A stretch of DNA of 64,000 nt from an uncultured Opitutales bacterium (GCA_964457855.1 CAYWEO010000001.1:81747-145746), one strand, 5' to 3'; numbered from the stretch's first letter, positions 35,882-38,798 are shown. Program-made: numbers and translations. Notes: generated by a model not told the origin, from the sequence alone.

Positions 35882-35910
35882 ATTCTCTTAAAAAATTACA
35901 CCCATGGCAA
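35882..35910 (-). promoter_or_regulatory. conserved island promoter module (gene 4)
   Basis: On the minus strand: TTGCCA-N17-GAGAAT, preceded by CTTCAGGC. The -10 ends 24 nt before the ATG. Confidence 0.6.
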
Positions 35911-35998
35911 GCCTGAAGAGGGTATTTTTTGAATGTGAGCAGATTTTGAGCTTAAAAGCCTTCTCCAAACAACAGAATTTCGGGTTTTTTGAGGACAA

Positions 35999-36979
35999 TT
36001 ACCACAATTTCGATTCATAACTGGATATGTGCTTAGAGCATTCCTTATTTGCCTGATTGATCTCATTATTTAGAAACTCCCAGTGATCGTTTAGTTTGTT
36101 TTCAAGCGTCCACGCTTCATTTTTACTCGTTTTACTCGTCGTAGTTGTTGTAAGCTTAATAGGTTCTTTCAAAACAGTTTCCAAAAATTGATCAAAATTG
36201 GAAACAGCTTGGCGGAGGTCGTGAATGTTTTCGTGGAGTTTAGTATTGGTCTTTGGGGATTGTGTGTCCATGTTTGCGATGATGGAATTAGCTATTCTCC
36301 AATAAAGCCTTGGATGCATTTCTTTTATTTCATCAAGACGTTTGAGGATTTTGTCTTTATTATCTCTTATCTTCGCCTGAAGTAGATACTCTAATTTGCG
36401 ACCTAGCGCTAGCTCGAGTTTTTCTAACTCAAACGATTTTTTGGCGACTTGGCCAGCCGGGAGAGTGCCCGCTGTTGGTATCTTTTCTAGCATAACTCCG
36501 CATTCTTCACTAACTTTTTCATAGTGCTCTTTCAATTCTTTCTGTCTTCTTTCCTCAAAAGCAGCGTGGATGTTCTCGGGAATTGAGAGGATAAGGCTCA
36601 TTGCGCTGATTGGGAAATTCAAAACACCTTTAAACGCGACAGTCGCTAGATTGCTTACAAATTTAACGATGAGGTGATTGTTCATAATCCTCAAATCCGT
36701 ATTGTTGGCTATGTGGAGCTTGGCTAAAAGGTCTTGGGCTTGTCCCAGGTAACTTCGTAGCGGCGTGCCAAAATCAAAAGTGTCATTGTCTAAACTTAAC
36801 CACTCAAGGGGTTTTTCCAACACACCACCGATACAACCTTTGAAAGACCCTGGATCCGCATTAATGATGTCACTGACCGCTTTTTTGATAAAATTGGCGT
36901 GGGATTTGACTGGTGATGTACCAACGCCATAAGGTAGTGTGCTAATACCCCTATTACTCGCTCTATCCAAACCAACCAT
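35999..36979 (-). CDS. island gene 3: divergent paralogue family member (326 aa)
   Basis: SDIINADPGSFKGCIGGVLEKPLEWLSLD and VSNLATVAFKGVLNFPISAMSLILSIPENIHAAFEERRQKE match the two family blocks. Confidence 0.7.
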   Translation of the reverse strand: MVGLDRASNRGISTLPYGVGTSPVKSHANFIKKAVSDIINADPGSFKGCIGGVLEKPLEWLSLDNDTFDFGTPLRSYLGQAQDLLAKLHIANNTDLRIMNNHLIVKFVSNLATVAFKGVLNFPISAMSLILSIPENIHAAFEERRQKELKEHYEKVSEECGVMLEKIPTAGTLPAGQVAKKSFELEKLELALGRKLEYLLQAKIRDNKDKILKRLDEIKEMHPRLYWRIANSIIANMDTQSPKTNTKLHENIHDLRQAVSNFDQFLETVLKEPIKLTTTTTSKTSKNEAWTLENKLNDHWEFLNNEINQANKECSKHISSYESKLW

Positions 36980-37727
36980 GCGTCAAAAATACCCCTCCGC
37001 GATATTGTCTTAAAAAAACACGCCCATGGCAAGCCTGAAGGAAGCGTTTTAAAACCAGTGCTAATTTTTTCACATTTTCCAGCTTGAGAGGGATTTCTTT
37101 CAGGTAGATTTCATGTTCATTCTTGATCTCTTGTAAATCGTCTATGCATTTTTTAAACATTTGGTTTGCGTTTTTAACGGTCTCTGGATTGTTATTTTTC
37201 TTTATTTGTTCCATTTCTTCCTTAACACTCGTAAGCATGCGAGATGCACTGCCAAACCCATATTTGGAGGTAGACCCTGCTAAATCATTGACAAGTTTAT
37301 TAAGACGTAACGCTGGACAACTCTGAGGAGCGTTTAGGGGGTTTTCGATCTTTTTTCCAGTTGACTTCTCAATCTCATCTAATTTTGCGGTAATCTCGTC
37401 TTTTAATTTGGCTATATCGTCACTTAACGTGTTTATATCGACGTTTTTCGAAACTTTATAACCGCTAAGGTCTTTGAAGATTCCGGCAGCGCCCGTCAGT
37501 TTCGAAAATAACCAGGACTTATTCGAGACTATATGACTGCCAAGGCCTTTGAAGATTCCAGTAGCGCCCGTAAAAACGCTCGTCAGTTTCGAAAATAACC
37601 AGGACTTTTGTTTTTCTTGTTCCGGTTTTTTTATGTCTAGTCCCTGTTTGTTTTCAACAGTCCCTGTTTGTACTTTAGTTTGATCTAATTGTACGTTACT
37701 TTTATCTAATTTGTTTATACCTGACAT
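36963..37727 (-). CDS. island gene 2: coiled-coil protein with internal KSWLFSKLT...GIFK(G/D)L duplication
   Basis: Track ORF 36963-37859 (TTG start) trimmed to ATG 37727 (MSGINKLDKSNV), which has an AAGGAG RBS and lies downstream of the promoter and terminator. The 3' end overlaps the gene 3 start by 17 nt. Confidence 0.7.
   Translation of the reverse strand: MSGINKLDKSNVQLDQTKVQTGTVENKQGLDIKKPEQEKQKSWLFSKLTSVFTGATGIFKGLGSHIVSNKSWLFSKLTGAAGIFKDLSGYKVSKNVDINTLSDDIAKLKDEITAKLDEIEKSTGKKIENPLNAPQSCPALRLNKLVNDLAGSTSKYGFGSASRMLTSVKEEMEQIKKNNNPETVKNANQMFKKCIDDLQEIKNEHEIYLKEIPLKLENVKKLALVLKRFLQACHGRVFLRQYRGGVFLTHGWFG
37004..37032 (-). promoter_or_regulatory. conserved island promoter module (gene 3)
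   Basis: On the minus strand: TTGCCA-N17-GACAAT, preceded by CTTCAGGC. It lies inside the 3' end of the gene 2 ORF. Confidence 0.55.
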
Positions 37728-37748
37728 ATAAAATGACTCCTTTATTTC

Positions 37749-37777
37749 ATTTTCTACAAGAAATACGCCGATAGCAA
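37749..37777 (-). promoter_or_regulatory. conserved island promoter module (gene 2)
   Basis: On the minus strand: TTGCTA-N17-GAAAAT, preceded by CTTCAAGC, followed by AAGGAG and the ATG at 37727. Confidence 0.6.
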
Positions 37778-37801
37778 GCTTGAAGGGGTAAAAAGTAGGA
37801 G

Positions 37802-37835
37802 CAAAAAAAACAACCCGCTCGTTACAAGCGGGTTG
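37802..37835 (-). terminator. intrinsic terminator after island gene 1
   Basis: On the minus strand: CAACCCGCT-TGTAACG-AGCGGGTTG followed by an 8-nt T-run. Confidence 0.8.
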
Positions 37836-37898
37836 TGAGAGGTAAAATGGAGAGCTCAACGTGAAGGAATCGCTATGTAACTAGCGGCTGACGTTGAA

Positions 37899-38747
37899 TC
37901 AATTTTTAAGTTTTTCGAGCCGCTTAATGCCATTATCGAACGACTTAAGGTGTTCCTTGAAATGGTTTTTAGGATCTCCACGGGTATAATCGAGATACTT
38001 TTTAAAGGCGTAACTTATGCGTAACTCTTTATCTTTATCTTCACGTGAGAGAGGTTTTTCGATTTCTTGGTCGAGATTGGTTGAGGTCTTGTCTAAAAAT
38101 TTCTCAAACTGGTTAAGCTGTTGCTCGATTGAGCCATGTGCGTCACCAAGGTTCTTCCATTCTCGATCCATGGGAATAGCATGATCGCCAAATTTGTCGT
38201 ACATGGCCGAATCGATATCACCGCGTATGTGGTTGCCTATAAACTCCCCTCTGCTCTCGCGAATCTCTTCAAGTTGCTCTGTAATTAGATCTATCTTTCT
38301 CTTAATTGATTCAAATTTAGTGAGAAAAAAAGTTTTTTGGATTTCATTTTTGAATAACGCCTTATTTTTATCGCTAATTTTTGATTGCTCAATCAACTGA
38401 AGTGATTTGTCTTTAATGTCTGATAGGGATTTTGGGTTTTTGATGCCTCCTGCCCAAAGTTTTTCTAATTGACCCAATACCTGATTGCTTTCAGATTTGC
38501 CAAAGAGAAGGCTCTTAATAGAATTTACGAATTGTGTGATAAAATTGCCCTTAAGCTGCTGAAATTTTGGTACGGACACACTGCGTTCTCTAAGGAGTTT
38601 GCTCTGTTCGAGATTACCTTTAACAGTCTCGCTACTCACTTTTTTAAAAGCGACCTTTTCTGGTTTTTCCGAGACTATCTCTTTGTTAGCGTCACTAATG
38701 ATGTTTTGTTTGATTGGATTGATCTTGGGAAGATTGCAATTTGACAT
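37899..38747 (-). CDS. island gene 1: coiled-coil protein, no recognisable family
   Basis: Track ORF 37899-38771 trimmed to ATG 38747 (MSNCNLPKINPIK), because ATG 38771 falls inside the predicted -10 element. Contains a short amphipathic segment FVNSIKSLLFG followed by K/E-rich helices. Confidence 0.7.
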   Translation of the reverse strand: MSNCNLPKINPIKQNIISDANKEIVSEKPEKVAFKKVSSETVKGNLEQSKLLRERSVSVPKFQQLKGNFITQFVNSIKSLLFGKSESNQVLGQLEKLWAGGIKNPKSLSDIKDKSLQLIEQSKISDKNKALFKNEIQKTFFLTKFESIKRKIDLITEQLEEIRESRGEFIGNHIRGDIDSAMYDKFGDHAIPMDREWKNLGDAHGSIEQQLNQFEKFLDKTSTNLDQEIEKPLSREDKDKELRISYAFKKYLDYTRGDPKNHFKEHLKSFDNGIKRLEKLKN

Positions 38748-38769
38748 AATCAAATACCTAATTTCCCTC

Positions 38770-38798
38770 ATTCTCTACAAAAAACACGCCGATAGCAA
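38770..38798 (-). promoter_or_regulatory. conserved island promoter module (gene 1)
   Basis: On the minus strand: TTGCTA-N17-GAGAAT, preceded by CTTCAAGC. Confidence 0.6.

Follow-up and report, generated by a model that had tools for sequence, protein, structure and literature searches.

The island and its repeated module

The stretch of DNA considered here comprises 64,000 nucleotides (nt) of a 184.6-kb contig from an uncultured Opitutales bacterium (GCA_964457855.1 CAYWEO010000001.1:81747-145746) and is called the window throughout. At about 32118-38862, between pnp/rpsO and leuS, it contains an island of seven open reading frames (ORFs), all on the minus strand and named g1 to g7 in their order on that strand. 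The G+C content of the cluster is 0.40-0.46, compared with approximately 0.47-0.52 in the surroundings. Each of g1 to g4 is preceded by a copy of one 37-nt module, CTTCARGC-TTGCYA-N17-GANAAT, which resembles a σ70-type promoter and carries additional conserved sequence around its -35 hexamer. The copies (n=4) are all on the minus strand, share one orientation and lie within the one island.

38806-38770, minus strand: module 1, CTTCAAGC TTGCTA TCGGCGTGTTTTTTGTA GAGAAT, before g1; the -10 ends 22 nt from the ATG at 38747
37785-37749, minus strand: module 2, CTTCAAGC TTGCTA TCGGCGTATTTCTTGTA GAAAAT, before g2; the -10 ends 21 nt from the ATG at 37727
37040-37004, minus strand: module 3, CTTCAGGC TTGCCA TGGGCGTGTTTTTTTAA GACAAT, before g3; the -10 ends 24 nt from the ATG at 36979
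35918-35882, minus strand: module 4, CTTCAGGC TTGCCA TGGGTGTAATTTTTTAA GAGAAT, before g4; the -10 ends 24 nt from the ATG at 35857

This repeat is real, far beyond chance and specific to the island within the window. A search of the 64-kb window with the 21-nt core CTTCARGCTTGCYATSGGYGT (a looser form of which is CTTCARGCTTGCYAT), allowing up to three mismatches, returns exactly four sites, which are the modules, where 0.01 would be expected. A position weight matrix assigns 58-61 bits to the four modules and -0.8 to the best of the remaining sites in the window; with nhmmer the modules reach E values of about 1e-10, and none of the remaining window matches is better than E ~1. Weaker copies, sought in the window by these two methods, were not found.

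The original prediction, made from the sequence alone, had listed the four strings with their coordinates and geometry, and the minus-strand reading agrees with it in all four cases. The spacer is indeed exactly 17 nt in every copy, as it is in the diverged relative described below, and the gap separating the -10 from the ATG, put at about 21-24 nt, measures 22, 21, 24 and 24 nt. It had also been claimed that conservation extends past the hexamers, and this is borne out: over the four copies, each hexamer has 5/6 invariant columns, the spacer 10/17 and the segment preceding the -35 7/8. Sixteen near-invariant bases span and flank the -35.

The genes of the island are as follows.

37899-38747, minus strand: g1, a Lys-rich orphan of 282 aa with no family match
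36963-37727, minus strand: g2, an orphan of 254 aa; its frame runs through module 3 and overlaps the start of g3 by 17 nt
35999-36979, minus strand: g3, an orphan of 326 aa
35006-35857, minus strand: g4, an orphan of 283 aa, paralogue of g5
33914-34966, minus strand: g5, 350 aa, tandem paralogue of g4, without a module; 39 nt past g4 and probably co-transcribed with it
32863-33849, minus strand: g6, a membrane protein of 328 aa with a two-lobed hydrophobic stretch of 67 residues (54-120) and a second stretch at 241-264
32118-32810, minus strand: g7, a tetratricopeptide repeat (TPR) protein of 230 aa, similar to SycD/LcrH/PcrH/IpgC (type III secretion translocator chaperones)

The proteins encoded behind the modules have little in common. 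In an all-against-all BLASTP comparison of the seven, the sole pair is g4 and g5 (40% identity, E 6e-39), while a faint block of 56 residues in g3 resembles the motif at the centre of g4/g5 (hhalign E 0.0012), and g1 and g2 match nothing. Since only g4 and g5, and faintly g3, are paralogues, the genes behind the modules have either diverged beyond recognition or were never related. Searches of Pfam, NCBIfam, PADLOC and PHROG gave no significant family for the island proteins except g7. No homologue of g3 was found in a search for one, and a g4/g5 profile run against 1.84 billion representatives recovered itself and coiled-coil noise only. The structure prediction for g4 is too poor for use, with a predicted local distance difference test (pLDDT) score of 43. 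The products of g1 to g5 are Lys-rich and soluble, and lack a signal peptide of the Sec type.

Module 3 is not intergenic but lies inside the 3' tail of the g2 frame, within its last 26 codons. These codons (FLQACHGRVFLRQYRGGVFLTHGWFG, 36963-37040 on the minus strand) differ in composition from the rest of g2 and span both module 3 and the g3 leader; the tail looks like a read-through extension that followed the loss of an older stop codon. Elsewhere in g2, at 37444-37607, there is an internal direct repeat of 75-87 nt that encodes two copies of KSWLFSKLT..GIFK.L.

The last gene, g7, matches the profile TIGR02552 (LcrH_SycD) over its whole length with an E value of 3.5e-10, but its 39.7 bits fall below the cut-off of 104.8 bits. 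The top Foldseek matches of its model are PcrH, AcrH, SycD, IpgC and Scc3, at target-normalised TM-scores of 0.55-0.74 and with generic TPR proteins close behind; the mean pLDDT of the model is 65, rising to 80-94 over the matching C-terminal part. The pairing of a hydrophobic protein (g6) with a chaperone-like one (g7) is typical of type III secretion translocator loci or Inc-like loci, and the window holds no apparatus genes. By analogy with such loci, the cluster looks like a set of secretion substrates together with a translocator-type chaperone, a setting that would suit joint regulation of the genes. A defence system and a prophage were tested as alternative identities for the island and rejected.

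Duplication and conservation

Modules 1 and 2 sit in a longer repeat of about 118 nt with 88% identity (38742-38859 and 37722-37840). The 5' end of this repeat is an intrinsic terminator, and its 3' end is exactly ATGTCA, the first two codons of both g1 and g2. Because the repeat runs from terminator to ATGTCA, the pnp-g1 and g1-g2 intergenic regions are duplicates of a single terminator-promoter-start cassette, in which the module begins 12-14 nt past the terminator.

38823-38855, minus strand: intrinsic terminator after pnp, hairpin ACAACCCGCTTGTAACGAGCGGGTTGT followed by a T-run; the 5' part of cassette 1 (38742-38859)
37802-37836, minus strand: intrinsic terminator after g1, hairpin identical to the one after pnp; the 5' part of cassette 2 (37722-37840)

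The cassette also bears on the start of g1. The version in the NCBI source, of 290 aa, uses an ATG at 38771 that arises from the -10 element (GAGAATG). A start at 38747, giving 282 aa, is more likely, because the duplicated cassette shows the intervening stretch to be non-coding: the codons after the corresponding ATG of copy 2 are AAA TAA.

Modules 3 and 4 are 89% identical over their 37 nt and have no similarity beyond them. When subfamily 1/2 is compared with subfamily 3/4, similarity extends from 8 nt before the -35 to the end of the -10, and the flanks are unrelated. All modules would have come from one ancestral promoter by duplication, with one subfamily (1/2) accompanied by the terminator and the other (3/4) making up the rest. 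The identical geometry of the copies, pointed out in the original prediction, is partly inherited, as copies 1 and 2 are cassette duplicates.

One diverged relative allows the conservation of a module to be followed across lineages. Contig L037 (P0002), from Joint Genome Institute (JGI) sample 3300077324, holds the 3' end of g3, a single g4/g5 hybrid gene that shares 65% identity with g4 across the 66% of g4 that it matches, and g6. Its version of module 4, CTTCAGGCTTGCCATttGTGTAATTTTTTAAGAGAAT, lies in the g3-g4 intergenic region. Between the window and this contig, module 4 is identical at 35/37 positions and the leader at 22/24, or 57/61 for module and leader together. The third codon positions of the flanking genes are 75-77% identical, the remainder of the g3-g4 intergenic region is identical at 57/80 positions, and the g5-g6 intergenic region is 73% identical. 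Measured against a background of 76%, the module has a binomial probability of 0.003, and the module together with its leader one of 0.0004. The comparison indicates that module 4 is under purifying selection.

The tandem paralogues g4 and g5 (33914-35857) correspond to a single gene in the relative (L037:539-1525), whose 5' half is g4-like and whose 3' half is g5-like. Either one lineage would have undergone a duplication, or the other would have lost sequence by recombinational deletion.

Other contigs that carry island genes belong to the same strain (98.2-100% identity). One of them, L001, from another sample, has an A>G change at 37764 (minus strand) in module 2, at a spacer position that is also variable (R) among the four copies. 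The same change is present in L040, a short contig that ends in the repeated cassette and is possibly mis-assembled. Phase variation through the T-tract of the spacer was considered and rejected, as the tract is just T6-T7 and shows no length variants among strains. Within g6, a tandem repeat at 33321-33392, with 36-nt units encoding EGEKKIEEK-type sequence, does vary in copy number among strains: contigs L038 and L039 have one unit fewer, which gives a protein of 316 aa instead of 328 aa.

In relatives with 70-71% PNPase identity, the region downstream of pnp holds no island and no module, and other genes and other terminators are found there, which is consistent with a lineage-restricted island.

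Probable promoter function and proposed shared control

Judged from the sequence, the modules very probably function as promoters overall. The fuller reading, to which we give about even weight, is that they are core promoters of the σ70 type for the four adjacent orphan genes and that a shared trans-acting factor acts with them at the -35 region.

The hexamers depart somewhat from the σ70 consensus. The -35 elements TTGCTA and TTGCCA match TTGACA at 4-5/6 positions, and the -10 elements GAGAAT, GAAAAT and GACAAT match TATAAT at 4/6, with A2 and T6 kept. A σ70 scan that requires 9 of 12 matches recovers modules 3 and 4; modules 1 and 2, at 8/12, are one match short. A probable rpsT promoter in the window reads TTGACA-N16-GACAAT and has the same GANAAT-type -10, so a -10 of this type is compatible with the housekeeping sigma factor of this organism. 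RNA polymerase with that sigma factor would then read TTGCYA, the 17-nt spacer and GANAAT.

Transcription starting about 7 nt past the -10 would give leaders of roughly 14-18 nt. Leaders of this length would not be odd here, because other genes in the window seem to have very short leaders or none, several of housekeeping type having a good -10 hexamer just 6-11 nt ahead of the start codon. One promoter-like site, TTGCCT-N18-TAAAAT, ends 6 nt before the ATG at 1148, and the regions concerned are 1110-1150 (plus strand), 19774-19815 (minus strand) and 25699-25730 (minus strand). In front of proS, a TATAAT ends 11 nt before the ATG. These sites suggest that leaderless or very-short-leader mRNAs are common in this organism.

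In the predicted transcription map, g1 would stand alone as an insulated unit, bounded on each side by one of the two identical intrinsic terminators. Promoter 2 would drive g2 and read on through g3 to g7, with no terminator until the hairpins past g7, and modules 3 and 4 would serve as internal promoters that boost g3 and g4-g7, respectively. No terminator-like site was seen between g2 and those hairpins (32049-32002), of which the first strong one is the following.

32002-32049, minus strand: first strong hairpin after g7, with 20 pairs; a member of a genome-wide composite hairpin repeat (see below) and the probable end of the g2-g7 transcript

Genes g5 to g7 had been expected to lack the module and to be co-transcribed. 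For g5 this is plausible, since the g4-g5 gap is only 39 nt and contains no promoter-like or terminator-like site. It fits g6 less well, which has a candidate promoter of its own (TTGACT-N17-TAGACT at 33917-33889, minus strand) whose -35 is kept in the relative L037.

The case for control beyond the polymerase begins with the extent of conservation. The block made up of CTTCARGC, the -35 and the first spacer bases (about -44 to -29), together with the semi-conserved G-rich and T-tract spacer, exceeds what polymerase needs, and for this reason an extra shared factor is inferred. CTTCARGC contains G and C, unlike an A/T-rich UP element, and its position would suit a class II activator or an extended contact with sigma region 4. 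In the proposed mechanism, one shared trans-acting factor would contact the -35 region, either as a class-II-type activator or as a repressor lying over the spacer, and the four genes would be turned on or off as a group, in the manner of the effector genes of a secretion-system regulon. The existence of such a dedicated regulator is plausible, with the arguments for and against it about evenly balanced. The only symmetry is an 8-bp palindrome, CAAGCTTG, in copies 1 and 2; the corresponding sequence of copies 3 and 4, CAGGCTTG, has lost it with no compensating change.

Several observations weigh against this interpretation. The hexamers agree with the σ70 consensus at only 8-9/12 positions, and promoter-like sites in the region number 17 compared with 12.5 ± 4.4 in shuffled sequences. 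As hexamer matches alone are not significant, the promoter case rests on the constant placement before the ATG, the terminator-then-promoter layout and the conservation. Much of the identity between copies 1 and 2 is owed to duplication or conversion of the whole cassette, whose terminator hairpin and loop are 36/36 identical. The conserved block shows neither the dyad nor the helical-phase direct repeat typical of transcription-factor sites, and no regulator gene lies within the island. Finally, the relative L037 has GG>TT at two spacer positions that are invariant in the four copies, which means that not every copy-invariant spacer position is essential, though this is one relative and one copy. 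The original suggestion of a shared regulator-binding site thus keeps its basis in the conservation beyond the hexamers, and is weakened by the lack of a dyad and of a regulator gene in the island and by the fact that no copy in the window lies outside the island.

A wider search for the module was made in two collections. The pattern TTCARGCTTGCYATSGGYGT was scanned against one genome per species and gave 29 single matches, of which three from the Planctomycetes-Verrucomicrobia-Chlamydiae (PVC) group were read and are coding coincidences (for example, a methyltransferase with ISGLPWAS); the source genome is outside this collection. A scan of JGI metagenome contigs gave two matches, both chance coding ones, in a collection that includes neither the source genome nor contig L035, which carries an exact copy. 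No locus in either scan had more than one match. Since neither collection covers the source genome or the metagenome contigs known to belong to it, these negatives say nothing about a regulon.

The main alternative is that the modules are ordinary constitutive σ70-type promoters whose extra similarity stems from ancestral cassette duplication and gene conversion, with no regulator and no regulon. We regard this as a serious possibility, although not the probable one. Several of the points above fit it well. Selection on the terminator alone would not demand the 36/36 identity of the cassette hairpin and loop, the genes after copies 3 and 4 show faint residual homology, and the module occurs nowhere else in the 64 kb. 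Some copy-invariant spacer bases are free to vary, as GG>TT shows, and the block has no dyad symmetry. On the other hand, the bounds of homology between the subfamilies coincide exactly with the bounds of the module and the flanks are unrelated, which looks functional rather than like a conversion tract. The orthologous copy is also significantly better kept than silent sites and neighbouring intergenic DNA. Moreover, the 8 nt upstream of the -35 contain G and C and are not UP-like, and therefore polymerase alone fails to explain their invariance.

It is distinctly unlikely that the modules depend instead on a dedicated alternative sigma factor, with an extended -35 read by sigma region 4 in the manner of HrpL and the hrp box. 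Effector regulons under a dedicated sigma factor are well known, HrpL of Pseudomonas syringae being an example, and both the 16 near-invariant bases around the -35 and the restriction of the module to the island would suit such a factor. Yet the hexamers and the 17-nt spacing are σ70-like, and the GANAAT -10 recurs in the probable rpsT promoter. Tests of the σ54, σ28, σ32 and hrp-box consensus sequences gave 3-6 mismatches in inconsistent places, and the sole alternative sigma gene in the window is rpoN, whose GG-N10-GC geometry is absent from the modules.

A non-promoter role, whether as a recombination or cassette-boundary site, as the end of a small mobile element or as a cis-acting RNA in read-through transcripts, is hardly credible. 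In its favour, four direct repeats stand at gene boundaries in the island, g1 has a ~118-nt cassette on either side, the pattern expected after a single-crossover insertion, and the genome has many repeated intergenic elements. Against it, no recombinase, integrase or transposase was found within the island or next to it. The module lacks inverted-repeat architecture and has no Rfam hit, and its four copies have no fold in common (copy 3 has a z-score of -0.2 and copy 4 one of +0.7). Nor is the module related to the hairpin repeats found throughout the genome, and the rest of the window contains no further copy of it. The rearrangement behind the L037 hybrid gene goes via coding homology and not via modules.

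Probable host association and comparison with known systems

The C-terminal half of the PNPase is 56-71% identical to proteins labelled Verrucomicrobia, Opitutae, Puniceicoccales, Coraliomargarita and Lentimonas. An affiliation with Chlamydiae, which an ATP/ADP translocase, an RNase HIII, an Inc-like protein and a leucine-rich repeat (LRR) protein might bring to mind, was rejected, as the named PNPase relatives are all Verrucomicrobia, Opitutae or Puniceicoccales. Other genes of the window that may bear on host interaction, way of life or regulation are listed here.

16922-18454, plus strand: TLC-family ATP/ADP translocase (Pfam E 3e-175)
43493-45571, minus strand: LRR protein of 692 aa, FBXL18-like; no module upstream
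57176-59863, plus strand: class-3 lipase-domain protein of 895 aa; no module upstream
59947-61359, plus strand: rpoN (σ54); no module upstream

A translocase in a Verrucomicrobia/Opitutae-like genome hints at an energy-parasitic or intracellular lifestyle beyond Chlamydiae and Rickettsiales. Taken together with the LRR and lipase-domain proteins, it leads us to infer that the bacterium is probably host-associated. A search of the literature for such an organism or such a motif found nothing.

The genome also has a composite palindromic intergenic repeat of two or three hairpins, found in more than a dozen intergenic regions, with hairpins such as CCGGAGGGGGTGTTTTTTGCAAAAAGCACCCCCTCCGG, TCGGAAGGCATTTTT...AAAAATGCCTTCCGA and GGTTCGGAAAC...GAAAAGAAAAGTTTCCGA. 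Its approximate sites are the following.

5558-5821, 10133-10297, 12643-12780, 15760-15943, 18462-18762, 23990-24182 and 25755-25938: composite hairpin repeat
31939-32119, 45649-45769, 48246-48421, 53830-53907, 55058-55245 and 61364-61544: further sites of the same repeat

This repeat looks REP/MITE-like and may act as a bidirectional terminator. It is unused inside the island, and its sequence is unrelated to that of the module.

Several known classes of element were compared with the modules and rejected. For σ54 (TGGCAC-N5-TTGCW), the TTGCW is present, but there is no GG 11 nt upstream, and the best matches, at 3-4/11 mismatches, lie outside the module. For σ28, σ32, the hrp box and the PIP box, the best matches have 2-6 mismatches at positions and on strands that are inconsistent over the four upstream regions. 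As a structured RNA, the region has no Rfam match at the gathering score; a permissive hit (E 0.13) merely overlaps the terminator, and only the terminator hairpins fold significantly. A dispersed repeat of the REP/MITE type was set aside on the grounds that the four copies are clustered and have no inverted-repeat structure, and that the dispersed hairpin family of this genome differs in sequence.

The nearest familiar model is the σ70 promoter. The modules resemble it in the -35 TTGCYA, the 17-nt spacer, the -10 GANAAT and the location upstream of genes, and for copies 1 and 2 also in following terminators. They differ from it in that 7/8 upstream and 10/17 spacer bases are invariant, which a plain σ70 promoter does not require. 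A second comparison is with Correia/CREE, REP, ERIC and MITE-like elements, which likewise are short repeated non-coding units, here with a terminator and a promoter, duplicated between unrelated genes. Unlike these, the module has four copies in one island and in one orientation, with neither terminal inverted repeats nor target-site duplications.

The third comparison concerns the regulons of secretion substrates, in which shared promoter boxes are the rule. Examples are InvF/SicA in Salmonella, the ExsA sites of Pseudomonas aeruginosa, the hrp box (HrpL) and the PIP box (HrpX). The island resembles these systems in having one conserved box, over or in place of the -35, before several unrelated, lineage-specific genes that look like secretion substrates. 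The box also contains a T-run, and the cluster includes a gene for a TPR protein that may be a SycD/IpgC-like chaperone. It differs from them in that their consensus sequences are not matched and no dedicated sigma factor is visible in the window, and a Pfam scan found neither an AraC/XylS-type activator nor a type III secretion apparatus among the window ORFs of at least 150 aa. To our knowledge, such regulation is not known in this phylum.

The principle of shared boxes before effector-type genes is textbook, and the value of the present case is local to the organism, in a lineage that is unstudied, and not conceptual. It offers a clean, small example in which promoter sequence has been held constant while the genes behind it diverged beyond recognition. 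If the modules are co-regulated promoters, they would provide a sequence handle for the rest of the host-interaction regulon in an uncultured lineage. A bolder and unlikely idea is that the cassette and its 37-nt core form a portable expression unit, which would plug acquired or fast-evolving genes for secreted proteins into a chaperone-coupled effector circuit of the type III secretion style, with an undescribed box and regulator.

Another shared box of this kind is the MxiE box of Shigella, a 17-bp element that is found ahead of the -10 in some dozen effector genes and acts with the chaperone IpgC (PMC3299695). Its position is given as "33 bp upstream" of the 5' end of the mRNA, and a naturally occurring box that departs at five positions is reported to be non-functional (PMC3299695). 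The modules were compared with the MxiE box GTATCGTTTTTTTANAG, for which three differences or fewer are needed, and it was rejected as a match: the best alignments have 4-6/16 mismatches and fall over the spacer and the -10. The placement differs as well, since the MxiE box is upstream of the -35 position and the conserved T-run of the module is in the spacer. The likeness to MxiE-type control is one of analogy of mechanism, and not of membership.

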